Shown: positions 29,141 through 63,801 of the stretch, piece after piece
How the letters are laid out: each line of letters opens with the position of its first letter
How positions within the stretch are numbered: the stretch's first letter is position 1
Assembly (NCBI GenBank): GCA_964016885.1
Contig: OZ024750.1
Location: forward strand, 52,266,001 to 52,330,000
Reading direction: 5' to 3'
Source of the DNA: Eledone cirrhosa
Taxonomy: Eukaryota
DNA: 64,000 bases
Position numbers and translations under genes: made by a program
The notes under the pieces: generated by a model
The model's input: the letters and a program-made list of their open reading frames with translations, nothing else
Databases searched by the model: none
What the model was told of the DNA's origin: nothing

Positions 29141-32100
29141 TATTTCTTTATTAGCCACAAGGGCACATAAGAAAAGGGGACAAAACAGACATGCCAGGGA
29201 TTTTACAAACAGTTATAACAATCGAAATCCCCACAAGGGAGGAGGTGCCACAAATGGGTTGTTTAATACCCCGTCGATAGAACAACCCTCAACTTCAGGA
29301 GCATGTTGTGCAAGTGCTCCTTTCTTCCTTTTGCTCTCTTCTTCAACTTACAGGTTTATAAACCGAGAAGGCCCAATCACTCGGGCCATTTTCGCTTCAT
29401 TCACCCACCTTTCAGTAAATTTACTGGGGTGCAGTGCCTCTCTCTCCACTCTGATTCTCCTTCTAAAGTGATACCTAAAGAAGGGAATGAATTGTTGTCC
29501 GGAGAGAAAGACATCTGTCCTCAGTCCTCTCAATCTCGTCCACCATATAACCTCTTTTACCATAGCCTCCCTTTCGTTTTTGAAAGAAGTTGGCGGTTTG
29601 ATCCTTATTATGGACTTGGCAGTCAACTGGATTTGTCCCATACGTGACAGCAGTTGTTCTGCATAGTTCCACAGGCCACTTACGCCCGGGCAGTGTACAA
29701 TTGCAAGCAAGACAGTTTCAATGTCTTGCCCGCATCTTGGACACGTCCTCTTGGAAGGATCCCTGCCGGGGCGTCCGTGGTTGTAGATCTTGTCACAAAC
29801 TGGTAGAGCTCCTCGGTAGCACTGCCAGAGTCTCTCCGAGCACGTCGTCGCCCTTGTGATGTACTAACCCTCTATAGAATGTTGAAGTGGAGTCTCCATT
29901 GATTGCCGTGCCTGCTTGACAGGACTGTGAGCGCATTCAATGTGCCAGGCACCCATCTTTGGTCTCCGCTTGACCCAGGACTGAAGCTACGTCAGCGAGA
30001 CAAGTTGCGGGAAGGCCTGTCTCATAAACGGTGCCCACACCGGTTGGGGGTCGTTGAGGAATACCTGTAGATGCTGTAGCTTCAGCGCATGTTTGCGCTT
30101 CATCAGCCACGGCATTCCCAGCCCTCCGTTGGAAGGGTGTTGAGAGCAGATGGATCTCCTCACCAGTGGAGGCTGCTTCTTCCAAAGGAACTGGAAGAGC
30201 ATGCGTTCCATCTTGGTGAGGTGTTCACGGGGACAAGGCACGACGGTCAAGCGGTAGTAGATAACGGACACTATGAAAGTGTTCGCCACCTCCGCTTGAC
30301 CTTTCAAAGATAGTTTGCACTCTGCCCACTTCTGGGTGAGCGCAAATACCTTAGCCGTGACTTCGTTCCAGGTTTTTCTCCACCTGGAGGTCCGAACCAG
30401 ACCCCGAGCAATTTCACCAGTCCATCCAGCGTCCAACAACGCTGTCGGACGGCATCGGTTTGCCTCTCCACATTCCGAGTTGCAAACTGACAGACTTGTC
30501 CGGGTTCAGTTTTGCTCCTGTGAGCCTTTCATATTCTTGCAGTAAGTTGCCGATCGCCCTGATTTCCGAGGTTTCCAACACCATTACTGTTACATCGGCG
30601 CCACTTTCCGCAGTCTCGGTTCCAATGAAATGCCCTGCAGCAGCTCCAACTTCCGCAGTAGTGGTTCTAGAGTCAGTACGTACAGAATGGAGGAGAGAGT
30701 GCATCCCTGTCGGATGGAACGCGTGATTGTGAATGGCTCCGATAGGTAGGCGTTCACCTTGACCATCGAGCAGATGTTGGTGTGCATTGCGGCGATCCAG
30801 CTCTCGGAGACAGGTCCGAAACCGGCCGCCTTGAGAACCGCTTAGACTTGATGGTCGAACGCCTTAGACTGATCTAAATTGATCAAAGCCCCACCGAAGC
30901 CGGGTTTACACCCCACCCTTTCTATGATGTATCGCATGAGGTAGCGGTTGTCGTGTATGGACCTGGTCGGGATTGCACACGTTTGCGCTTTCCCTACCAG
31001 GTTCTCGACAACAAGCGCCAACACCTTGGCCAAAATCTTTAACTCTGTGTTGAGCAGAGTTATGGGCCTAAAGTTGCTTAGTTTGTCCCCCTTGTTCTCG
31101 TCTTTCCTGATCAGCTTTACTATGCCCCTGCCTGCAGAACTGGGAATTCTCCCGTTCTGCTGCCAGTTGCAGTAGACGGCTTCGAGGTCGCCAGAGAACA
31201 AGTGCAGCATGCCTATGTAAAACTCATGGGGTAGACCATCTAGACCGAGTGATTTGCGTTTCCCGCAGTGGCTGTGATCGGTCTTTCGATAAACTTGGCG
31301 TCCATGCTCAAGAGATGCGGCAGGCCGTTGAGGTATGAACCGAGGTCCATTGCCCCATTTGACTTACCGCCACTCTGTTTGAGCAGTTGTGCAAAGTGCC
31401 GCTGAAAGGCCGCACACATGCGATTGGGGTCAAGTAGCACATGTCCGTTTTGGTCTTTCAAAGACCGAATCGTGGGCTTGTTGCCCCTTTTCACCTCTGC
31501 CACTCGGGCCCAGCTAACAGCTTTTGCTCCCACGTTTCCTAGAGCACGTGATTTACTTCTGACCACGCAGCCTTCGTGTTTCGCGTCGAAGAACTGGTCC
31601 AGTGCCGTTCTCGTTTCTAGCACTCTAGCTGCGTTTCCACTCCTAAGCGCCTCCTCTACCTTGGCTATTAGTTCTGTTTCTGTTTCGTTTTTCTCTAAGA
31701 CTAATTCTCTGCTAAAGTCTATCGACTCTACTCTAGTTGCTCTCTTGAGAGAGTACCACCATCTGTTGTTGACGATGGCTCCCGTCAACTCTTGCTTAAC
31801 TAATCTACTTATCCGTTCACTGTAGGCTTTACGTGTCGGTAGCGACACATTCAGCTTCCAGTATTCGGATCCTTGTCTATGTATTCTATCACGGTTGACT
31901 ATGCAGATGACTAGTTTGTGGTCTGAATAGGCAACCATGTGCATTTGTGGACAGCTTAACATCTTTTCTCTCTCTAATTAAAAAAAAAAAACCTGTCTAA
32001 ATACGATCTAGATGTCCCGCTGTGGTTTGTCCTCGTCCACTGTGGTGCAGTCGGGAAATCCAGTCGATACCTATCGGCTAGTTGGAATTGGCCGATTAAA

Positions 32101-34166: not shown

Positions 34167-35288
34167 GTGTGTATGTATATATAGGTATGTGTGTAAATAC
34201 ACACATACACATCTGTGTATGTGTGCACATATGAGAACATATTTTTATGGTGATGTAATTTCACACTTTGTAAGTCTCCCACTCTAATAATTGTTTAAAG
34301 TTTGTCAGCCGCTACTTAACCAATATCCAAATAGTTGTTTAGTTCTGCCAGGCATCTGTAATGTCGCCTCAGTTTATGAGAATTTGAAGTAACTGTCTCT
34401 CTTATCTCTTGTCTCTGTGTTGTTTGAGACATACTGACATATTTACTGTTGAAACAGCATGGATGATGTCTCTGCCGCCTTTCTTTCACTGTTTTCTTTC
34501 TTTTTTATTTTCTTTATTTTTTAGTTTTAATTACATTTTCTTTTCATATTGGAAAGTATGCTTTTCAAACTGAAATATGGGATATAGTATTTATACTACA
34601 AATACACTATGTATATATATATGTACACACACGTAAATATCATCATCATAATTTAACATGGGAGGGGTGGGGCTTGCTATTGCACGCACACACTGTATAT
34701 ATATATATATATATATATATATTCATGCCTTGACTTTGCTAACCCTTTCACTACTGCATTTCTAATGAAACCACTGTTGCAATTAATTTATTAATTTTCA
34801 AAATAAGCAAATATTTGGAGGAATTTTATAAAATAACTTTTTCATTAGTAAGCAGATATTTAGAACATTAAGAAAAATATCTAAAATTCAATTATGGTGG
34901 AAGGTTTTAATTTAAGGATAAATATTTTTATGCAAGTAGTTTTGTATCATAAATCCAGGGTGGTTTCAAGCAGGTCGATATCAAAGGAGTCAAAGAGAAA
35001 TATATAAAAAAGACATATGTCAGTGTTGATTTACATATTTTCAGTTAAATTTTGCAGTTTTCTGTACAGTTATTTGGTTATTGAATATCTCAGCTGCTTA
35101 GTACTCAGTTTAACCTTTTATCATTTAAACTGGCTATATCCGACCAGAATTCTTTCACCTATTCCTGTTCAAACTGGCTGTAACCAGCCACTCATACTGG
35201 TAAGATATTGTTCTCAAAAGAAATAACAAAATCTCATAGATTCAATATAATGTGAGATAAGCCTTTACCACAAAAATACAATAGTATA

Positions 35289-35940
35289 AGTATGTACACG
35301 TACATACATATATGTATACAGACGTACAGTAGTATGTATATATATATATATACATACATGCACACATATATATATGTACATATGGATACACCGAACATTT
35401 ATTATAATGATCGGTGTGTCTGTAAACAAACATCCCGTATTAAGCCGTAGTGTCTAGCAACCATCGTTGCTCGTTTGTTCAACACTGACAAAGGAACGCT
35501 GTACTAGTTTCAAGCTTATAGCTATCGTCAGCAACGTATACCTTCCTGCCAGATTGTTGAACGTATATACTTACCTTATGCATATTAACGGCTGAGTAGC
35601 TCAATTTGCATATCGAGTGGGTTAATCGGCCGGGTGCACAGAAAACGATAAACGGAAAAATGAAACGAAATTTCATTTCCCACTCTTAGTACGGCTGTTA
35701 CTTAAATATAAGTATGTACACGTACATACATATATGTATACAGACGTACAGTAGTATGTATATATATATATACATACATGCAGACATATATGTATGTACG
35801 TATGGCTTCACCGAACATTTATTATAATGCTCGGTGTGTCTGTAAACAAACATCCCGTATTAAGCCGTAGTGTCTAGCAACCATCGTTGCTCGTTTGTTC
35901 AACACTGACAAAGGAACGCTGTACTAGTTTCAAGCTTATT
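35289..35940 (-). mobile_element. Retrozyme-like non-coding insert: ~1.55 tandem copies of a 420-422-nt unit with HHR
   Basis: Unit restarts at ~35710; 13-bp TSD ATACAATAGTATA at 35276-35288 and 35941-35953; HHR on minus strand; no credible ORF. Confidence 0.8.
35496..35537 (-). ncRNA. Minimal type I hammerhead ribozyme, canonical core
   Basis: Minus strand: ACGUUG-CUGACGA-U.AGCU(aua)AGCU.U-GAAA-CUAG-UA-CAGCGU; 6-bp helix I with one G.U; palindromic ACUAGU helix III; partial second copy 35916-35939. Confidence 0.88.
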
Positions 35941-36809
35941 ATACAATAGTATAGAGTAATGTAAATACTAAAGAACTAACCTATTTATGACCGTATTTCT
36001 AATGAAATAAATTATTTTGGAAATAATTTAATTTAACTCTTTCATTACCATATTTCTAATAAAATACCCTTCCTATGATTTTCAAATAATTTGGAAAATA
36101 ATTAAGATTTTGAAGATATTAGTGATATGACTTTCTCATTATCAAACTGGTGTTTGGAACATCACTTATAAATGTTTTTATATAAATATGAAACACTTTA
36201 AAATAAAAGTTTTATATCATAGAACCAAGGACAGTTTCAAGCAGTATAAAAAGGGTTAACATACATAGTCAAGTACTATACATATCAAGGCTGCTTCCTA
36301 AAAGATAGGGTTTCTTTTCAAAGACAGAAAATACAACAGTTTTGATCAATTACTGATGATCTTAAGACTAAGTGTGACCTTATAAGAGTACTGCTCATAT
36401 ATCTAGGACATTACTCTTATAGACCACACCCAGTTGATAATCTAATTGATTGACATTCATAGATATGTTGTTTCTTCTTTTTTGTTTTTAACCACTACTA
36501 CTATAACACCATCTGTTTGTCTGAAGCAACAATCTGTCTACTACCACCAACACCACTACCTCCTCATTCCTCTCCTCCTCTCTCTACAATTTTCTTCACC
36601 AAATCCTGTACAAAACACTATGATCAATCCTTCCACAACATCCCATTGTAACTCCTGTTCACAGTTCCTCTACAGTAAAGCGCCCCAAACTTGGTGTTGT
36701 GAAGGAAATTGAGAATTCTTTATATATATATGTTTTAGTATTGAAATTTTCCCTGCAAAAAATAAATCTTTGTTGTTGTACATAAAAAAACAACTCCACG
36801 AATTTAAGA

Positions 36810-37601: not shown

Positions 37602-40600
37602 CTGATGAGCCTTCCAACTTGAGACACTTAACATACCTGATGAACCTTCTGACTTGAGACAGACTTAACATATCTGATGAGCCTTCCAACTTGAGACAGA
37701 CTTAACATACCTGATGAGTCTTCCAACTTGAGACAGACTTAACATACCTGATGAGTCTTCCAACTTGAGACAGACTTAACATACCTGATGAGTCTTCCAA
37801 CTTGAGACAGACTTAACATACTTGATGAGCCTTCCAACTTGAGACAGACTTAACATACCTGATGAGCCTTCTGACTTGAGATAGACTTAACCCTTTAGTG
37901 TTCAAACAGCCCGAAAACACCCACACTAAAAAATCATTCTAAAAATAAACAAACCACCATCAAAATCTCGTCCATTCGAGATTACTGTGAGATTAGGCCA
38001 TTACTGCGAAAATTAACACTTAATATAGTGGAACAACTTAAAACAACACGTTATTTTAACTTTGAAAATGCAACAATTTTTTTTTCCGTATCAACATGGC
38101 TTATGAAAGTAGCGATACCAACTTTGAAGGTTTTACACACGACGACATTCAGAATAAACAAGAAACAAACGATAATATTAGTGATTTATCTTCAAATGAA
38201 TCTGATGTTTATATTTCTGAAACTTCGTCCGACGATGATTGTTTTGAAAGTGAAAACTAAGGAGACTTCAGGACGCCATTGAAAATATTACAGCAACGTG
38301 GTTGAAAAATGCCACACTAATGTATGTTCCCGATTTTATTCAAAATACTGGTCCACAACACACATTAGCTCCCGATGCTAAAGCACTGGATTATTTCTTT
38401 TTGTTTTTACCACAAACTTTCTTCGAAGTTGTGACAGAAGAGATTAATCGATATGCCCAACAACAGATTTCAAATCAAGGAAAACCCGATCTGTTTGGCG
38501 ACTGACATGCTGCGGAAATGCAAGCATTTTTTACCGTAAATATTATGTTCGGTATAAAAGAATTTCCAAGACTGTGGAATTGCTGGAGCACTGATATAAG
38601 GTTTAGTGATTCTTATATATCAAGTATTATGCCGAAAACAACGTATTTAAAATTAAACCAGTATTTGCACCTGGTTGATACTTCAAATGCCCCTATTAAT
38701 TAATTTCACCTGCCCATAAAAGTCAAATTTGACCCAAAAAATCAGGTAAAATTATATAATTGTAAATTATTGATATTTAAACATCTACTGACAAAATTTC
38801 AAGCCTGCACATAGAAAATTAAGAAAATTACAAACAAATAAAATTGATAACCCTCTTGAGTATGATTAACTCGAAATAATTATTTCTACTTTTGGCACAA
38901 GGCCAGTAATTACACAGTACATTACTGGTACTTTATTTTATCGACCCCGTAAGGATGAAAGGCAAAGTTAACCTCGGCGGGATTTGAACTCAGATCGTAA
39001 AGGGACGTAACTATGCTGGAAAGCATGTCCGACCCTCTACTGATACTACCAATCCACCGCCTTGATTAACTCAAAATAATGCGAACAGATAAGCATGACA
39101 TTTGAAAATTAATGCGAATGCTAAAGGGTTAACATATCTGATGAGCCTTCTGACTTGAGACAGACTTAACATACCTGATGAGCCTTCTGACTTGAGACAG
39201 ACTTAACATACCTGATGAGCCTTCTGGCTTGAGACAGACTTAACATATCTGATGAACCTTCCGACTTGAGACAGACTTAACATATCTGATGAACCTTCCG
39301 ACTTGAGACAGACTTAACATACCTGATGAGCCTGCTGACTTGAGACAGACTTAACATACCTGATGAGCCTTCTGACTTGAGACAGACTTAACATACCTGA
39401 TGAGCCTTCCGACTTGAGACACTTAACATACCTGATGAGCCTTCTGACTTGAGACAGACTTAACATACCTGATGAGCCTGCTGACTTGAGACAGACTTAA
39501 CATACCTGATGAGCCTGCTGACTTGAGACAGACTTAACATACCTGATGAGCCTGATGAGCCTGCTGACTTGAGACAGACTTAATATACCTGATGAGCCTT
39601 CTGACTTGAGACAGACTTAACATACCTGATGAGCCTTCTGACTTGAGACAGACTTAACATACCTGATGAGCCTTCTGACTTGAGACAGACTTAACATACC
39701 TGATGAGCCTGCTGACTTGAGACAGACTTAACATACCTGATGAGCCTTCCGACTTGAGACAGACTTAACATACCTGATGAGCCTTCCGACTTGAGACAGA
39801 CTTAACATACCTGATGAGCCTTCCGACTTGAGACAGACTTAACATACCTGATGAGCCTGCTGACTTGAGACAGACTTAACATACCTGATGAGCCTGCTGA
39901 CTTGAGACAGACTTAACATACCTGATGAGCCTTCTGACTTGAGACAGACTTAACATACCTGATGAGCCTGCTGACTTGAGACAGACTTAACATACCTGAT
40001 GAGCCTTCCGACTTGAGACAGACTTAATATACCTGATGAGCCTTCTGACTTGAGACAGACTTAATATACCTGATGAGCCTTCTGACTTGAGACAGACTTA
40101 ATATACCTGATGAGCCTTCTGACTTGAGACAGACTTAACATACCTGATGAGCCTTCTGACTTGAGACAGACTTAACATACCTGATGAGCCTTCTGACTTG
40201 AGACAGACTTAACATACCTGATGAGCCTGCTGACTTGAGACAGACTTAACATACCTGATGAGCCTGCTGACTTGAGACAGACTTAACATACCTGATGAGC
40301 CTTCTGACTTGAGACAGACTTAACATACCTGATGAGCCTTCTGACTTGAGACAGACTTAACATACCTGATGAGCCTTCTGACTTGAGACAGACTTAACAT
40401 ACCTGATGAGCCTTCCGACTTGAGACAGACTTAACATACGTGATGAGCCTTCTGACTTGAGACAGACTTAACATACCTGATGAGCCTGCTGACTTGAGAC
40501 AGACTTAACATACCTGATGAGCCTGCTGACTTGAGACAGACTTAACATACCTGATGAGCCTTCCGACTTGAGACAGACTTAACATACCTGATGAGCCTTC

Positions 40601-43600
40601 CGACTTGAGACAGACTTAACATACCTGATGAGCCTGCTGACTTGAGACAGACTTAACATACCTGATGAGCCTGCTGACTTGAGACAGACTTAACATACCT
40701 GATGAGCCTGCTGACTTGAGACAGACTTAACATACCTGATGAGCCTGCTGACTTGAGACAGACTTAACATACCTGATGAGCCTGCTGACTTGAGACAGAC
40801 TTAACATACCTGATGAGCCTGCTGACTTGAGACAGACTTAACATACCTGATGAGCCTTCTGACTTGAGACAGACTTAACATACCTGATGAGCCTGCTGAC
40901 TTGAGACAGACTTAACATACCTGATGAGCCTGCTGACTTGAGACAGACTTAACATACCTGATGAGCCTTCCGACTTGAGACAGACTTAACATACCTGATG
41001 AGCCTGCTGACTTGAGACAGACTTAACATACCTGATGAGCCTGCTGACTTGAGACAGACTTAACATACCTGATGAGCCTGCTGACTTGAGACAGACTTAA
41101 CATACCTGATGAGCCTGCTGACTTGAGACAGACTTAACATACCTGATGAGCCTGCTGACTTGAGACAGACTTAACATACCTGATGAGCCTTCCGACTTGA
41201 GACAGACTTAACATACCTGATGAGCCTGCTGACTTGAGACAGACTTAACATACCTGATGAGCCTGCTGACTTGAGACAGACTTAACATACTTGATGAGCC
41301 TGCTGACTTGAGACAGACTTAACATGCCTGATGAGCCTTCCGACTTGAGACAGACTTAACATGCCTGATGAGCCTTCCGACTTGAGACAGACTTAACATA
41401 CCTGATGAGCCTTCCGACTTGAGACAGACTTAACATACCTGATGAGCCTTCCGACTTGAGACAGACTTAACATACCTGATGAGCCTTCCGACTTGAGACA
41501 GACTTAACATACCTGATGAGCCTTCTGACTTGAGACAGACTTAACATACCTGATGAGCCTTCTGACTTGAGACAGACTTAACATACCTGATGAGCCTTCT
41601 GACTTGAGACAGACTTAACATACCTGATGAGCCTGCTGACTTGAGACAGACTTAACATACCTGATGAGCCTTCCGACTTGAGACAGACTTAACATACCTG
41701 ATGAGCCTGCTGACTTGAGACAGACTTAACATACCTGATGAGCCTGCTGACTTGAGACAGACTTAACATACCTGATGAGCCTTCCGACTTGAGACAGACT
41801 TAACATACCTGATGAGCCTTCCGACTTGAGACAGACTTAACATACCTGATGAGCCTGCTGACTTGAGACAGACTTAACATACCTGATGAGCCTTCCAACT
41901 TGAGACAGACTTAACATACCTGATGAGCCTGCTGACTTGAGACAGACTTAACATACCTGATGAGCCTTCCGACTTGAGACAGACTTAACATACCTGATGA
42001 GCCTGCTGACTTGAGACAGACTTAACATACCTGATGAGCCTTCCGACTTGAGACAGACTTAACATACCTGATGAGCCTGCTGACTTGAGACAGACTTAAC
42101 ATACCTGATGAGCCTGCTGACTTGAGACAGACTTAACATACCTGATGAGCCTGCTGACTTGAGACAGACTTAACATACCTGATGAGCCTGCTGACTTCAG
42201 ACAGACTTAACATACCTGATGAGCCTGCTGACTTCAGACAGACTTAACATACCTGATGAGCCTGCTGACTTGAGACAGACTTAACATACCTGATGAGCCT
42301 GCTGACTTGAGACAGACTTAACATACCTGATGAGCCTGCTGACTTGAGACAGACTTAACATACCTGATGAGCCTGCTGACTTGAGACAGACTTAACATAC
42401 CTGATGAGCCTGCTGACTTGAGACAGACTTAACATACCTGATGAGCCTTCCGACTTGAGACAGACTTAACATACCTGATGAGCCTGCTGACTTGAGACAG
42501 ACTTAACATACCTGATGAGCCTGCTGACTTGAGACAGACTTAACATACCTGATGAGCCTGCTGACTTGAGACAGACTTAACATACCTGATGAGCCTGCTG
42601 ACTTGAGACAGACTTAACATACCTGATGAGCCTGCTGACTTGAGACAGACTTAACATACCTGATGAGCCTTCCGACTTGAGACAGACTTAACATACCTGA
42701 TGAGCCTGCTGACTTGAGACAGACTTAACATACCTGATGAGCCTGCTGACTTGAGACAGACTTAACATACCTGATGAGCCTTCTGACTTGAGACAGACTT
42801 AACATACCTGATGAGCCTTCTGACTTGAGACAGACTTAACATACCTGATGAGCCTGCTGACTTGAGACAGACTTAACATACCTGATGAGCCTTCCGACTT
42901 GAGACAGACTTAACATACCTGATGAGCCTGCTGACTTGGGACAGACTTAACATACCTGATGAGCCTGCTGACTTGAGACAGACTTAACATACCTGATGAG
43001 CCTGCTGACTTGAGACAGACTTAACATACCTGATGAGCCTGCTGACTTGAGACAGACTTAACATACCTGATGAGCCTGCTGACTTGAGACAGACTTAACA
43101 TACCTGATGAGCCTGCCGACTTAAGACACTTAACATACCTGATGAGCCTTCCGACTTGAGACAGACTTAACATACCTGATGAGCCTTCTGACTTGAGACA
43201 GACTTAACATACCTGATGAGCCTGCTGACTTGAGACAGACTTAACATACCTGATGAGCCTGCTGACTTGAGACAGACTTAACATACCTGATGAGCCTTCC
43301 GACTTGAGACAGACTTAACATACCTGATGAGCCTGCTGACTTGAGACAGACTTAACATACTTGATGAGCCTGCTGACTTGAGACAGACTTAACATGCCTG
43401 ATGAGCCTGCTGACTTGAGACAGACTTAACATGCCTGATGAGCCTTCCGACTTGAGACAGACTTAACATGCCTGATGAGCCTTCCGACTTGAGACAGACT
43501 TAACATACCTGATGAGCCTTCCGACTTGAGACAGACTTAACATACCTGATGAGCCTTCCGACTTGAGACAGACTTAACATACCTGATGAGCCTTCTGACT

Positions 43601-43988
43601 TGAGACAGACTTAACATACCTGATGAGCCTTCTGACTTGAGACAGACTTAACATACCTGATGAGCCTTCCGACTTGAGACAGACTTAACATACCTGATGA
43701 GCCTGCTGACTTGAGACAGACTTAACATACCTGATGAGCCTTCCGACTTGAGACAGACTTAACATACCTGATGAGCCTGCTGACTTGAGACAGACTTAAC
43801 ATACCTGATGAGCCTGCTGACTTGAGACAGACTTAACATACCTGATGAGCCTTCTGACTTGAGACAGACTTAACATACCTGATGAGCCTTCTGACTTGAG
43901 ACAGACTTAACATACCTGATGAGCCTTCTGACTTGAGACAGACTTAACATACCTGATGAGCCTTCCGACTTGAGACAGACTTAACATA
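37565..43988. repeat. 37-bp satellite: ~9 units + piggyBac insert + ~131 units
   Basis: Unit CTGATGAGCCT(GCT/TCT/TCC)GACTTGAGACAGACTTAACATAC. Confidence 0.98.
37891..39128 (+). mobile_element. Non-autonomous piggyBac deletion derivative, copy 2, containing a full SINE A (38878-39061, minus)
   Basis: TTAA TSDs at 37887-37890 and 39129-39132 (the TTAA of a satellite unit); same TIRs and peptides as 16706-17817. Confidence 0.93.
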
Positions 43989-46350: not shown

Positions 46351-46504
46351 TGGGGATATAGAAACTTTTAAAATAAAACATTAACAATAATTTTAAAAAA
46401 CTAAACAAAAGGTAAAGTATTTTCTACATTTAAAAAACACACAAAAACTATTAACTTTATTTTATATTATTTCTTGGTGTCAACATTTTGTAGTCTGGTG
46501 CTGA

Positions 46505-49500
46505 CTGACAGATGTGAATTGATGTCACAGTATCTTCTGTCATCCTAGATCTGGAGCTGACAGATGTGAATTGATGTCACAGTATCTTCTGTCATCCTAC
46601 ATCTGGTACTGACAGATGTGAATTGATGTCACAGTATCTTGTCATCCTACATCTGGAGCTGACAGATATGAATTGATGTCACAGTATCTTCTGTCATCCT
46701 ACATCTGGTACTGACAGATGTGAATTGATGTCACAGTATCTTCTGTCATCCTACATCTGGTACTGACAGATATGAATTGATGTCACAGTATCTTCTGTCA
46801 TCCTACATCTGGTACTGACAGATGTGAATTGATGTCACAGTATCTTCTGTCATCCTACATCTGGAGCTGACAGATGTGAATTGATGTCACAGTATCTTCT
46901 GTCATCCTAGATCTGGAGCTGACAGATGTGAATTGATGTCACAGTATCTTCTGTCATCCTACATCTGGAGCTGACAGATGTGAATTGATGTCACAGTATC
47001 TTGTCATCCTACATCTGGAGTTGACAGATGTGAATTGATGTCACAGTATCTTGTCATCCTACATCTGGTACTGACAGATGTGAATTGATGTCACAGTATC
47101 TTGTCATCCTACATCTGGTACTGACAGATATGAATTGATGTCACAGTATCTTGTCATCCTACATCTGGTACTGACAGATATGAATTGATGTCACAGTATC
47201 TTCTGTCATCCTACATCTGGTACTGACAGATGTGAATTGAGGTCACAGTATCTTGTCGTCCTACATCTGGTACTGACAGATGTGAATTAATGTCACAGTA
47301 TCTTGTCATCCTACATCTGGTACTGACAGATATGAATTGATGTCACAGTATCTTCTGTCATCCTACATCTGGTACTGACAGATGTGAATTGAGGTCACAG
47401 TATCTTGTCGTCCTACATCTGGTACTGACAGATGTGAATTGATGTCACAGTATCTTGTCATCCTACATCTGGTACTGACAGATATGAATTAATGTCACAG
47501 TATCTTGTCATCCTACATCTGGTACTGACAGATATGAATTGATGTCACAGTATCTTGTCATCCTACATCTGGTACTGACAGATATGAATTGATGTCACAG
47601 TATCTTGTCATCCTACATCTGGTACTGACAGATGTGAATTGAGGTCACAGTATCTTCTGTCATCCTACATCTGGAGCTGACAGATATGAATTGATGTCAC
47701 AGTATCTTCTGTCATCCTACATCTGGAGCTGACAGATGTGAATTGATGTCACAGTATCTTCTGTCATCCTACATCTGGAGCTGACAGATGTGAATTGATG
47801 TCACAGTATCTTGTCATCCTACATCTGGAGTTGACAGATGTGAATTGATGTCACAGTATCTTGTCATCCTACATCTGGTACTGACAGATGTGAATTGATG
47901 TCACAGTATCTTGTCATCCTACATCTGGTACTGACAGATATGAATTGATGTCACAGTATCTTGTCATCCTACATCTGGTACTGACAGATATGAATTGATG
48001 TCACAGTATCTTCTGTCATCCTACATCTGGTACTGACAGATGTGAATTGAGGTCACAGTATCTTGTCGTCCTACATCTGGTACTGACAGATGTGAATTGA
48101 TGTCACAGTATCTTGTCATCCTACATCTGGTACTGACAGATATGAATTAATGTCACAGTATCTTGTCATCCTACATCTGGTACTGACAGATATGAATTGA
48201 TGTCACAGTATCTTGTCATCCTACATCTGGTACTGACAGATATGAATTGATGTCACAGTATCTTGTCATCCTACATCTGGTACTGACAGATGTGAATTGA
48301 GGTCACAGTATCTTCTGTCATCCTACATCTGGAGCTGACAGATATGAATTGATGTCACAGTATCTTCTGTCATCCTACATCTGGAGCTGACAGATGTGAA
48401 TTGATGTCACAGTATCTTCTGTCATCCTACATCTGGAGCTGACAGATGTGAATTGATGTCACAGTATCTTGTCATCCTACATCTGGAGTTGACAGATGTG
48501 AATTGATGTCACAGTATCTTGTCATCCTACATCTGGTACTGACAGATGTGAATTGATGTCACAGTATCTTGTCATCCTACATCTGGTACTGACAGATATG
48601 AATTGATGTCACAGTATCTTGTCATCCTACATCTGGTACTGACAGATATGAATTGATGTCACAGTATCTTCTGTCATCCTACATCTGGTACTGACAGATG
48701 TGAATTGAGGTCACAGTATCTTGTCGTCCTACATCTGGTACTGACAGATGTGAATTAATGTCACAGTATCTTGTCATCCTACATCTGGTACTGACAGATA
48801 TGAATTGATGTCACAGTATCTTCTGTCATCCTACATCTGGTACTGACAGATGTGAATTGAGGTCACAGTATCTTGTCGTCCTACATCTGGTACTGACAGA
48901 TGTGAATTGATGTCACAGTATCTTGTCATCCTACATCTGGTACTGACAGATATGAATTAATGTCACAGTATCTTGTCATCCTACATCTGGTACTGACAGA
49001 TATGAATTGATGTCACAGTATCTTGTCATCCTACATCTGGTACTGACAGATATGAATTGATGTCACAGTATCTTGTCATCCTACATCTGGTACTGACAGA
49101 TGTGAATTGAGGTCACAGTATCTTCTGTCATCCTACATCTGGAGCTGACAGATATGAATTGATGTCACAGTATCTTCTGTCATCCTACATCTGGAGCTGA
49201 CAGATGTGAATTAATGTCACAGTATCTTGTCATCCTACATCTGGTACTGACAGATATGAATTGATGTCACAGTATCTTGTCATCCTACATCTGGTACTGA
49301 CAGATGTGAATTGAGGTCACAGTATCTTCTGTCATCCTACATCTGGAGCTGACAGATATGAATTGATGTCACAGTATCTTCTGTCATCCTACATCTGGAG
49401 CTGACAGATGTGAATTAATGTCACAGTATCTTGTCATCCTACATCTGGTACTGACAGATATGAATTGATGTCACAGTATCTTGTCATCCTACATCTGGTA

Positions 49501-51390
49501 CTGACAGATGTGAATTGAGGTCACAGTATCTTCTGTCATCCTACATCTGGAGCTGACAGATATGAATTGATGTCACAGTATCTTCTGTCATCCTACATCT
49601 GGAGCTGACAGATGTGAATTAATGTCACAGTATCTTGTCATCCTACATCTGGTACTGACAGATATGAATTGATGTCACAGTATCTTGTCATCCTACATCT
49701 GGTACTGACAGATGTGAATTGAGGTCACAGTATCTTCTGTCATCCTACATCTGGAGCTGACAGATATGAATTGATGTCACAGTATCTTCTGTCATCCTAC
49801 ATCTGGAGCTGACAGATGTGAATTAATGTCACAGTATCTTGTCATCCTACATCTGGTACTGACAGATATGAATTGAGGTCACAGTATCTTCTGTCATCCT
49901 AGATCTGGAGCTGACAGATGTGAATTGATGTCACAGTATCTTCTGTCATCCTACATCTGGAGCTGACAGATATGAATTGATGTCACAGTATCTTCTGTCA
50001 TCCTACATCTGGAGCTGACAGATGTGAATTAATGTCACAGTATCTTGTCATCCTACATCTGGTACTGACAGATATGAATTGATGTCACAGTATCTTGTCA
50101 TCCTACATCTGGTACTGACAGATGTGAATTGAGGTCACAGTATCTTCTGTCATCCTACATCTGGAGCTGACAGATATGAATTGATGTCACAGTATCTTCT
50201 GTCATCCTACATCTGGAGCTGACAGATGTGAATTAATGTCACAGTATCTTGTCATCCTACATCTGGTACTGACAGATATGAATTGATGTCACAGTATCTT
50301 GTCATCCTACATCTGGTACTGACAGATGTGAATTGAGGTCACAGTATCTTCTGTCATCCTACATCTGGAGCTGACAGATATGAATTGATGTCACAGTATC
50401 TTCTGTCATCCTACATCTGGAGCTGACAGATGTGAATTGAGGTCACAGTATCTTCTGTCATCCTACATCTGGAGCTGACAGATATGAATTGATGTCACAG
50501 TATCTTCTGTCATCCTACATCTGGAGCTGACAGATGTGAATTAATGTCACAGTATCTTGTCATCCTACATCTGGAGTTGACAGATGTGAATTGATGTCAC
50601 AGTATCTTGTCATCCTACATCTGGAGTTGACAGATGTGAATTGATGTCACAGTATCTTGTCATCCTACATCTGGTACTGACAGATGTGAATTGATGTCAC
50701 AGTATCTTGTCATCCTACATCTGGTACTGACAGATGTGAATTAATGTCACAGTATCTTGTCATCCTACATCTGGAGCTGACAGATGTGAATTAATGTCAC
50801 AGTATCTTGTCATCCTACATCTGGTACTGACAGATATGAATTGATGTCACAGTATCTTGTCATCCTACATCTGGAGCTGACAGATGTGAATTGATGTCAC
50901 AGTATCTTGTCATCCTACATCTGGTACTGACAGATATGAATTGAGGTCACAGTATCTTCTGTCATCCTACATCTGGAGCTGACAGATATGAATTGATGTC
51001 ACAGTATCTTCTGTCATCCTACATCTGGAGCTGACAGATGTGAATTAATGTCACAGTATCTTGTCATCCTACATCTGGAGCTGACAGATGTGAATTGATG
51101 TCACAGTATCTTCTGTCATCCTACATCTGGTACTGACAGATATGAATTGATGTCACAGTATCTTCTGTCATCCTACATCTGGTACTGACAGATATGAATT
51201 GATGTCACAGTATCTTCTGTCATCCTACATCTGGTACTGACAGATATGAATTGATGTCACAGTATCTTGTCATCCTACATCTGGTACTGACAGATGTGAA
51301 TTGATGTCACAGTATCTTCTGTCATCCTACATCTGGAGCTGACAGATGTGAATTGATGTCACAGTATCTTCTGTTGTCTTAACATCTGGT
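46505..51390. repeat. 50/52-bp satellite, ~95 units, with higher-order structure
   Basis: Unit CTGACAGAT(G/A)TGAATTGATGTCACAGTATCTT(CT)GTCATCCTACATCTGG(TA/AG). Confidence 0.98.
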
Positions 51391-51925
51391 ACTGACAGAT
51401 GTGGGTTGATGTCAGTATCTTCTGTCTTACATCTGGTACTGACAGATGTGGGTTGATGTCAGTATCTTCTGTTTTACATCTGGTACTGACAGATGTGGGT
51501 TGATGTCAGTATCTTCTGTCTTACATCTGGTACTGACAGATGTGGGTTGATGTCAGTATCTTCTGTCTTACATCTGGTACTGACAGATGTGGGTTGATGT
51601 CGGTATCTTCTGTCTTACATCTGGTACTGACAGATGTGGGTTGATGTCAGTATCTTCTGTCTTACATTTGGTACTGACAGATGTGGGTTGATGTCAGTAT
51701 CTTCTGTCTTACATCTGGTACTGACAGATGTGGGTTGATGTCAGTATCTTCTGTCTTACATCTGGTACTGACAGATGTGGGTTGATGTCAGTATCTTCTG
51801 TCTTACATCTGGTACTGACAGATGTGGGTTGATGACAGTATCTTCTGCCTTACACCTGGTGCTGACAGATGTGGGTTGATGTCAGTATCTTCTGTCTTAC
51901 ATCTGGTGCTGACAGATGTAGGTTG
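51391..51925. repeat. 47-bp variant sub-array, ~11 units
   Basis: Unit CTGACAGATGTGGGTTGATGTCAGTATCTTCTGTCTTACATCTGGTA. Confidence 0.95.
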
Positions 51926-62307: not shown

Positions 62308-63801
62308 CAGCTTTCGTCGACTTGAAGAAGGCCTTCGACAGAGTCCCCCGTTCCATTATCTGGTGGGCTCTTAGAAAACTAGGTGTTGATGAATGGCTTG
62401 TGAGAGCTATACAAGCCATGTATAAAGAAACAGTCAGCAAGGCTAGAATTAACAACGAATATAGTGAAGAGTTTAGTGTAAAAGTTGGTGTTCATCAGGG
62501 ATCTGTTCTTAGCCCCCTACTATTTATTATTGCCCTCCAGGCTATAACAGTGGAGTTCAAATTAACCTGGCTAAGACTAAAGTTCTAGTTTGTAAGAAAG
62601 AAAATAAGGCGGCGATCCCCTCCGGCAAGTGGCCATGCGCAGAGTGTAGGAAAGGCGTAGGTAGAAACTCCATTTTGTGTCCGAAATGCAAAGTTTGGGT
62701 GCATAAAAGATGTAGTGGGATCACAGGTAAGCTAACTAAGAACATAGATTTTACATGTGGCCGGTGTTCTGGCGCAATAAGTAGCAGCAAGTGCCCACAA
62801 AATACTAGCTCTTTCAGCTGCGCAGAGGGTTCTATAGAAATAGTGGACAGCTTCCGTTACCTGGGTGACAAAATCAGCAGTGGGGGAGGGTGCTCTGAAA
62901 GTACAGTAGCTAGAGTCAGAACTGGGTGGAAAAAGTTCAGAGAGCTTATACCACTATTAGCCGCTAAAGGGTTCTCCCTAAAAATGAAAGGCAGGTTGTA
63001 CGATGCCTGCATACGAACAGCAATGTTGCATGGCAGTGAGACCTGGACATTGTGTGCAGAAGATATACGCAGACTAGAGAGAAACGAAGCTTGCATGCTC
63101 CACTGGATGTGTAATAGTAATATACGTGAACGACAAAGCATAAACGAACTAAGGAAAAAATTAGAAATAAGAGGGATCAGATGTTGTCTACTCGAGAGAA
63201 GGCTACGTTGGTATGGTCACGTGATGCGCATGAAGGACGATAGCTGTATAACAATGTGCAGGGCAATAAAGATAGACGGTAGCCACGGAATAGGCAGACC
63301 CAGAAAAACCTGGGACGAGCTGATAAACTCCGACCTCACACACTTACACCTCACCAAGACAATGTCACTGGACCGAGACCTTTGGCGGTACTCAGTAATA
63401 GAGAAGACCCGCCTTACCTAAATACAAAGTAAAACCTACTACAGTCAGTAGGCATCTCTAACAAAATACACCCCCGTCCCACCACCCCCACCCCATCCAC
63501 ACCGCCCCCTTCTATGTAAAGTTATGTTGGTGCCACACCATCCAGGCCGAAACAAATGAGATCGTGTAGGTGTCACGACAAAAAAACACACAGTCCACGC
63601 TGTAATGTGGCCGTGTAGGCAACACGGTAAAAACCTCCCAGACCCACACTGTAAATGTGGTTGGTGTTAGGAAGGGCATCCAGCTGTAGAAAACCCGCCA
63701 GACAGTCCTATGCGAGCAAGACAATCACTCTTGCCTCAAGTGGGAAAACCCCTGTCCAAACCCATGCAAGCGTGGAACACGGACGTTAAACGTTGATGAT
63801 G
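62305..63801 (+). mobile_element. 5'-truncated RTE-clade LINE with PHD finger inside the RT region
   Basis: AFVDLKKAFDRVPR..GVHQGSVLSPLLF, deletion of the YADD segment, INLAKTKV, PHD finger, FRYLG, MLHGSETW, RRLRWYGHVMR..GRPRKTW; stop at 63421; UTR and (GAT)n tail. Confidence 0.93.

Follow-up and report, generated by a model that had tools for sequence, protein, structure and literature searches.

The genome of Eledone cirrhosa contains a high-copy, ORF-less 420-nt repeat that carries a hammerhead ribozyme motif and that was likely inserted in trans by a Penelope-like element (PLE), probably from a circular monomer RNA. The retrozyme class and its link to PLEs are already in print, the movement of animal retrozymes having so far been explained by PLE mobilization and circular templates that were proposed from co-occurrence and homology. 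The family described here gives a junction footprint that points to the enzyme class, together with two candidate start sites. Its young loci with identical units allow a test of the circle, using an RNA of 420 nt and a PLE protein of the same genome, and the PLE 'tail', so far unexplained, can be studied in this family on a large sample.

The copy considered first lies within a 64-kb stretch of DNA (hereafter, the window), where a 652-bp, ORF-less insert on the minus strand (35289-35940) is flanked on both sides by copies of a 13-bp sequence. The insert comprises 1.55 head-to-tail units with a period of 420-422 nt, the units disagreeing at 6 of 213 shared positions, and an ORF check within the window found no ORF of at least 150 aa overlapping it. 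An earlier note on this DNA had described such a partial tandem of about 1.55 units, without an ORF and bounded by a 13-bp duplication within a MITE, and the repeat, ORF and paralogue analyses bore it out on each of these points. The host MITE is about 215 bp long, is split by the insertion and has inverted ends flanked by TTAA, and it may be piggyBac-like. Among its paralogues (the best 40 scored of 4386 candidates), 19 were used for the target-site comparison, and since all 19 hold the 13-bp site once and free of insert, the duplication is a genuine target duplication. Its true length is 8-13 bp, because the element itself matches it by four letters at the element's 3' end and by one letter at the 5' end. 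Target-site duplications are present in some of the other copies, but among 39 other one-arm copies only 2 have a clear one, and several of the 39 turned out to bear very short inverted arms. The window copy is an ordinary, slightly decayed family member, of which only the clean duplication is atypical. Its features are as follows, with unit positions (q1-q420) numbered from just after the cleavage triplet, such that q equals 35922 minus the window position.

35110-35979: host MITE of about 215 bp, interrupted by the insertion (from paralogue comparison).
35276-35288: left copy of the target-site duplication, its last four letters also matching the short 3' end of the element.
35289-35940, minus strand: retrozyme insertion of 1.55 units in one arm, ORF-less (from repeat and ORF analysis).
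35289-35501, minus strand: partial unit at the terminus (unit positions 1-213/216), its end being the short 3' end of the family.
35502-35921, minus strand: full 420-nt monomer between two predicted cut sites, a predicted circular RNA (from the predicted fold).
35496-35537, minus strand: complete type I hammerhead, predicted cut 35502/35501.
35537-35532 paired with 35501-35496, minus strand: hammerhead helix I, 6 bp.
35531-35525, 35523-35513 and 35511-35508, minus strand: hammerhead core, helix II and GAAA, respectively; helix III is palindromic.
35648-35705, minus strand: PLE-type 'tail' between the short (about q216) and long (q274) 3' ends of the family.
35700-35713, minus strand: predicted small hairpin with the short 3' end in its loop, a candidate internal start of reverse transcription (from the fold and by analogy to PMC11167929).
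35716-35803, minus strand: predicted long, TA-rich hairpin, its (TA)n length setting the unit length.
35922-35940, minus strand: second, 5'-truncated hammerhead without the CUGANGA core, at the 5' junction of the insertion.
35941-35953: right copy of the target-site duplication.

On the minus strand lies a full type I hammerhead core (35531-35502), its helix I being 6 bp and its helix II 4 bp long, and cleavage is predicted between 35502 and 35501. It is the only complete motif found by a motif search of the 64-kb window; the second, 5'-truncated motif places its cleavage triplet 420 nt from that of the complete one, as had been noted before. Fold prediction gives pair probabilities of 0.45-0.94 for helix I and 0.81-0.99 for helix II. 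Helix III consists of one base pair and a palindromic four-letter loop, and its six-letter palindrome is predicted to pair with itself at -4.8 kcal/mol. Thus, the description of the hammerhead as 'canonical' holds for the core, the 6-bp helix I and the palindrome but not for the one-pair helix III, and the motif, as read from its sequence, is of the dimer type and so not fully canonical. The complete window motif is also one loop II letter shorter than that of the family. The Rfam comparison that the earlier note proposed returned no hammerhead among 50 matches at E<=1, only TA-repeat microRNA look-alikes. As a control, the motif search gave 489 matches in 1.3 Mb of loci versus 1 in the reversed sequence. 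Folded as a circle, the 420-nt monomer (GC content 38 %) is predicted to be 69 % paired, with a z of -4.5 against 25 shuffles.

Across the 3.0-Gb genome, the exact hammerhead-core pattern has 23,675 matches and a 3'-proximal 34-mer has 30,100, the reversed control giving 0 in each case; these are counts of units and not of insertions. A DNA search with the unit gave 2039 candidates, of which the best 40 scored 97-98 %. The unit is therefore not single-copy, a point on which the retrozyme reading might have failed. Loci were mapped in three samples, i.e. the 30 best matches, copies taken by position in the first 22.5 Mb of contig C1 (L081-L174; partly core-selected), and 83 copies spread along C1 for which the 3' motif was the sole criterion (L199-L288). 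Subfamily identity spans 97 % down to about 75 %, and unit length is 420-430 nt, reaching 466-520 nt in older subfamilies with expanded TA. A ~52-unit, ORF-less array of the 420-nt unit is located at 43.950-43.971 Mb of contig C28 (L175, L150, L176), with 7.5 % divergence between units (23 units compared). There is also a homologous sister family, with a unit of 466-469 nt, 9,252 core matches and a layout like that of the 420-nt family; it includes lineages that are very young, with arms reaching 31 units (L009:409-1140, L288:207-945, L319-L338).

In the family alignment, helix pairing is kept in 98.9 % of 351 cells, and pair 3 of helix I, scored among 177 motifs, is U.G in 99, G.U in 40 and A-U in 5. 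Taken by itself, the 420-nt family shows little covariation (1 pair of 27), and the ~52-unit array has a weak excess of ribozyme conservation (12 of 42 columns variable versus 182 of 420). When the 420-nt family is compared with the 468-nt sister, six of the ten helix I and II pairs, three in each helix, are changed on both sides, with conservation of the core, loop II and the palindrome of helix III. On this comparison, the putative ribozyme is under selection, with helices I and II preserved by compensatory changes in the diverged sister family.

By its sequence traits the family is a non-LTR retrozyme, with cleavage and circles as predictions: it is a short, ORF-less, head-to-tail repeat in many copies; it has one type I hammerhead per unit, with core and helices intact and Rfam models unmatched; and it is apparently without LTR, PBS or PPT, has target-site duplications of more than 4 bp when these are present and has a GC content below 50 %. 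Metazoan non-LTR retrozymes, such as those of Mytilus (350-390 bp) and Rtz331 of the axolotl (Cervera and de la Pena 2020, PMC7229834), share with it an ORF-less tandem unit of 150-450 bp with one type I hammerhead each, the low GC content, the duplications of more than 4 bp when present, a highly paired predicted circle and the presence of PLEs in the same genome. The one-pair helix III with a palindromic tetraloop resembles HHR_Amex1, and in the axolotl, cleavage by a hammerhead with such a helix is poor in the monomer and good in the dimer (PMC7229834). The present family differs from these retrozymes in its sequence, and its circle is a prediction from the fold. That same paper proposes PLE mobilization from shared traits, and the word 'inverted' is absent from its available text. 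Vertebrate non-LTR retrozymes have been presented as non-autonomous PLE derivatives (Li, Clavereau and Pollet 2026, 10.64898/2026.07.22.740005) and, like the family described here, have PLEs as the partner class and range from monomers to long arrays. Their PLE link comes from co-occurrence and from pLTR homology in Xenopus, whereas the present family has a PLE-type footprint and no pLTR homology found in 50 PLE loci; in the available text of that report, 'tail' has 0 occurrences and 'inverted' has 1, in a reference title. Among the literature searched, we found no mollusc or cephalopod description of the 420-nt family, which Repbase, Dfam or paper supplements may list, and no tail or two-ended insertion footprint for retrozymes, Repbase, Dfam, subscription journals and supplements lying outside that search.

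In the ribozyme sense, the 3' ends of the family fall at two fixed sites, a short one at about q216 and a long one at q274, 55-58 nt apart, and the 5' ends are variable in the mapped samples; 253 of 275 typed ends run into (TA)3+. Circularly permuted end points, which the earlier note had anticipated, do not occur at the 3' ends, given their confinement to two sites, and a pile-up of 5' ends at the cut site is absent as well (1 of 151 segments). In 62 of 67 head-to-head insertions, a short end is combined with a long one, the rest being four long-long and one short-short (p 1.4e-13 versus 50:50, with binary typing and two loci contributing two pairs each); these remain from 73 candidate pairs after six, all mixed, were dropped for an internal gap. 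In the sister family, 15 of 16 head-to-head pairs, one unclear locus being left out, are mixed, with ends at q235 and q304 and a tail of 69 nt. Such strict pairing of short with long speaks for a single coordinated event as the origin of both arms. The insertions thereby display what is expected of PLE-type integration, i.e. a fixed 3' end with an optional tail, variable 5' truncation and an inverted, head-to-head copy with the tail on one end only. For 5 of 41 unique 5' flanks, paralogues carry (TA)n at the junction, so the (TA)n tract would be a pre-existing target that is often trimmed by the 5' joint, and telomerase-like synthesis of the tract is unneeded. In one of the mapped samples, 5' ends seem to gather in the U-rich arms of hairpins and near the ribozyme (unit positions 7-12, 46-53, 69-78, 248-261 and 357-406). 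At seven loci (L002, L121, L122, L127, L166, L171 and L286), a 5' end is joined head-to-head to the 3' part of another hammerhead element or PLE. As a real process, chimeric joining is unsupported, both in frequency (4 of 41 junction flanks versus 108 of 800 controls) and in orientation (6:4 versus 44:38).

An inverted copy and a tail are documented for PLE pLTRs (Arkhipova 2013, PMC3846280; Craig 2021, PMC8557442; Frangieh 2024, PMC11167929). Reverse transcription by a PLE in vitro begins at two positions within the RNA, which correspond to the limits of the tail in the genome; the enzyme cuts and extends both strands and is predicted to act as a dimer, and the tail is the stretch between the two starts and has been called unique to PLEs (PMC11167929). 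Compared with the pLTRs in these three reports, the present family is alike in its partial tandems, 5' truncation, head-to-head inverted arm, one-end tail, AT-rich or (TA)n targets and frequent lack of a target-site duplication, and unlike in being ORF-less, in having a tail of 55-58 nt (69 nt in the sister) versus 30-40 nt in print and in having arms of up to 20-31 units. The non-autonomous Chlamys elements in the same reports form insertions with multiple copies arranged head-to-tail and, unlike the family here, are without canonical hammerheads. Because the insertions have two fixed, paired ends of PLE type, a PLE enzyme likely copies the unit, the partner class being read from the insertion footprint and the candidate being a PLE reverse transcriptase-endonuclease. 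Overall, the core matches, the paired ends and the compensatory changes lend support to the earlier reading of a multi-copy, probably PLE-mobilized retrozyme with a dimer-type motif.

As for the template, we think that a circular monomer RNA is likely. Rare variants, per 100 sites, are shared at 0.27 between adjacent units and at 0.19 between sister arms versus 0.019 in identity-matched controls, i.e. 14 and 10 times above those controls, and conflict of common alleles between adjacent units or sister arms is 4-5 times lower than in controls. In one lineage (284 units), ten insertions have insertion-specific median unit lengths of 469-522, and paired arms are alike in unit length (492/492, 521/523, 505-507/508); in a young lineage (629 units), the length is 422 or 424 per insertion, with up to 20 units per arm. 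These length comparisons are descriptive, as units are not independent. One sister-family insertion, with arms of about 6 and about 12 units and ends at q235 and q304, has 17 identical units among the 17 extracted. Together, these observations favour one unit being multiplied per insertion, which is what reverse transcription on a circular template would bring about. The suggestion that the greater-than-unit length is itself a sign of a circular template stands to the extent that read-through of the cut site, shared variants and insertion-specific lengths favour the circle; length alone is no proof, because partial tandems are typical of all PLEs and insertion in vitro is independent of cleavage (PMC11167929).

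Two linear templates must be weighed against the circle. In the first, an unlikely one, the retrozyme would still be mobilized by a PLE, and the template would be an uncleaved linear multimer from a long, recently homogenized array, with the hammerhead serving another step. It draws on the in vitro work, in which the PLE inserted uncleaved RNA and hammerhead mutants were inserted normally (PMC11167929), so cleavage is dispensable there. The reading with a circle must also reckon with the 8 of 9 Xenopus dimers that were uncleaved (10.64898/2026.07.22.740005). Long arrays are indeed present, including the ~52-unit array and arms of 20 and 31 units, and the three haplotype markers used in a single-locus test for the circle each occur at several long arrays, so that test does not decide the matter. 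A 17-unit arm at another place carries the haplotype of the identical-unit insertion as well (69 units, 7 loci), so a linear source is possible for that insertion. A one-circle template is also called into question by insertions that mix haplotypes between units (L139 and L140, for example): at least two common-allele conflicts were counted at 13 of 83 loci with tandems and at 13 of 69 with two arms. However, the ~52-unit array is, at 7.5 %, too heterogeneous to template identical units, internal priming costs at least one unit per round, and the insertion-specific lengths that arms share would need a separate homogeneous source for each insertion. In the second, which is quite improbable, hammerhead-cut linear monomers would be the template and the reverse transcriptase would jump end to end at the cut site, on the same or another molecule. 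Homogeneous and mixed arms would be explained alike, a modest excess of segments (11 of 151) stop no further than about 25 nt from the cut, and the haplotype switches at L136 and L140 fall in wide intervals that contain it. Yet, in the sample selected by the 3' motif, 138 of the 151 segments run through the cut site with the junction intact and a single one ends exactly there, so the usual template is something other than free cut monomers, and 17 identical units would need many faultless jumps.

A further alternative concerns the unit and not its template, namely that it is the pLTR of an unseen autonomous PLE and the window copy a 5'-truncated PLE. Among 10,596 GIY-YIG candidates in the genome, the best 150 were scored and 50 PLE loci were examined, which leaves this reading some room, as does an insertion anatomy of pLTR type. 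The examined loci encode a reverse transcriptase with a C-terminal GIY-YIG domain, and most carry a cysteine linker of the Neptune/Nematis type (compared with PMC8557442); one PLE protein of this genome has its nearest named relatives among bivalve proteins (55-63 % identity). Three ORF-bearing families of this kind end in (TA)n at two sites 40-65 nt apart, with inverted copies in which short is paired with long, and have hammerhead variants of their own. In Neptune-like pLTRs (L061, L062, L066, L067, L072, L073), these variants have UUGAAAA in place of CUGANGA, and in one Neptune-like family GCAA stands where GAAA is expected. None of the 50 loci has a pLTR homologous to the unit; a resemblance over 16-18 T-rich nt to the short end of the L067/L073 family may be chance. 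In neither the 128 loci nor the larger set that followed (about 200 sampled loci) does an arm occupy a pLTR position relative to an ORF, and none of these loci has an ORF upstream or an ORF for reverse transcriptase and GIY-YIG continuous with the repeat. PLE coding pieces do occur near copies, in 3 of 128 loci and then in 8 loci of the full sample, where they are downstream, on the opposite strand, or at least 1.2 kb off beyond a (TA)n tract. Furthermore, multi-unit arms cross the unit boundary repeatedly and remain ORF-less, and two related families have each evolved pure-tandem subfamilies. The pLTR reading is accordingly very improbable. In offering it as the alternative to a retrozyme, the earlier note was right that the unit inserts exactly as a pLTR does, but the unit is unattached to a PLE ORF in the sampled loci, and the choice is no true either/or. 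Hardly credible is the notion of satellite DNA spread by DNA-level recombination, with the identical units partly an assembly artefact, since the long arrays do show later duplication (period-2 and period-3 patterns) but recombination as the mode of dispersal is already contradicted by fixed 3' ends, 5' truncation, inverted paired arms and target duplications at thousands of dispersed sites.

If the template is a circular monomer RNA copied by a PLE enzyme, insertion might proceed as follows. Tandem copies would be transcribed, two palindromic helix III motifs would pair so that the hammerheads cut as a dimer, and the monomer would be ligated into a circle. A PLE protein, perhaps Neptune-like by its (TA)n preference, would nick both strands at a TA-rich site, and reverse transcription would be primed at two internal RNA sites, one per DNA strand. 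Each cDNA would circle the template a variable number of times, and then either the two cDNAs would join 5'-to-5' or, as may be the case for the window copy, one cDNA would join the target by microhomology. The full form of this scheme is bidirectional rolling-circle retrotransposition, in which an asymmetric pair of PLE enzymes would use a self-cut RNA circle, with starts 58 nt apart and one per nicked strand, to make palindromic concatemers of up to 10-14 kb per event; we hold it tentatively, at slightly less than an even chance.

Other hammerhead-bearing repeats were seen in the genome. A third ORF-less hammerhead tandem with a 310-nt unit (L100, L141, L149, L240) has arms joined head-to-head and ends in (TA)n at two sites 34 nt apart, and a further one has a 459-nt unit. 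In the 1.3 Mb of loci, which are (TA)n-biased, there are 165 hammerhead motifs of other families, most with a palindromic helix III, versus 1 in the reversed sequence. The window itself contains two satellites, one of 37 bp x 131 (39129-43988) and one of 50-51 bp x 107 (46504-51919), and the 37-mer contains CTGATGAG without a complete hammerhead. It also has weak matches to reverse transcriptase and PHD-finger sequences, at 30845-31363 on the minus strand and 62513-63418 on the plus strand, which are probably retroelement fragments.
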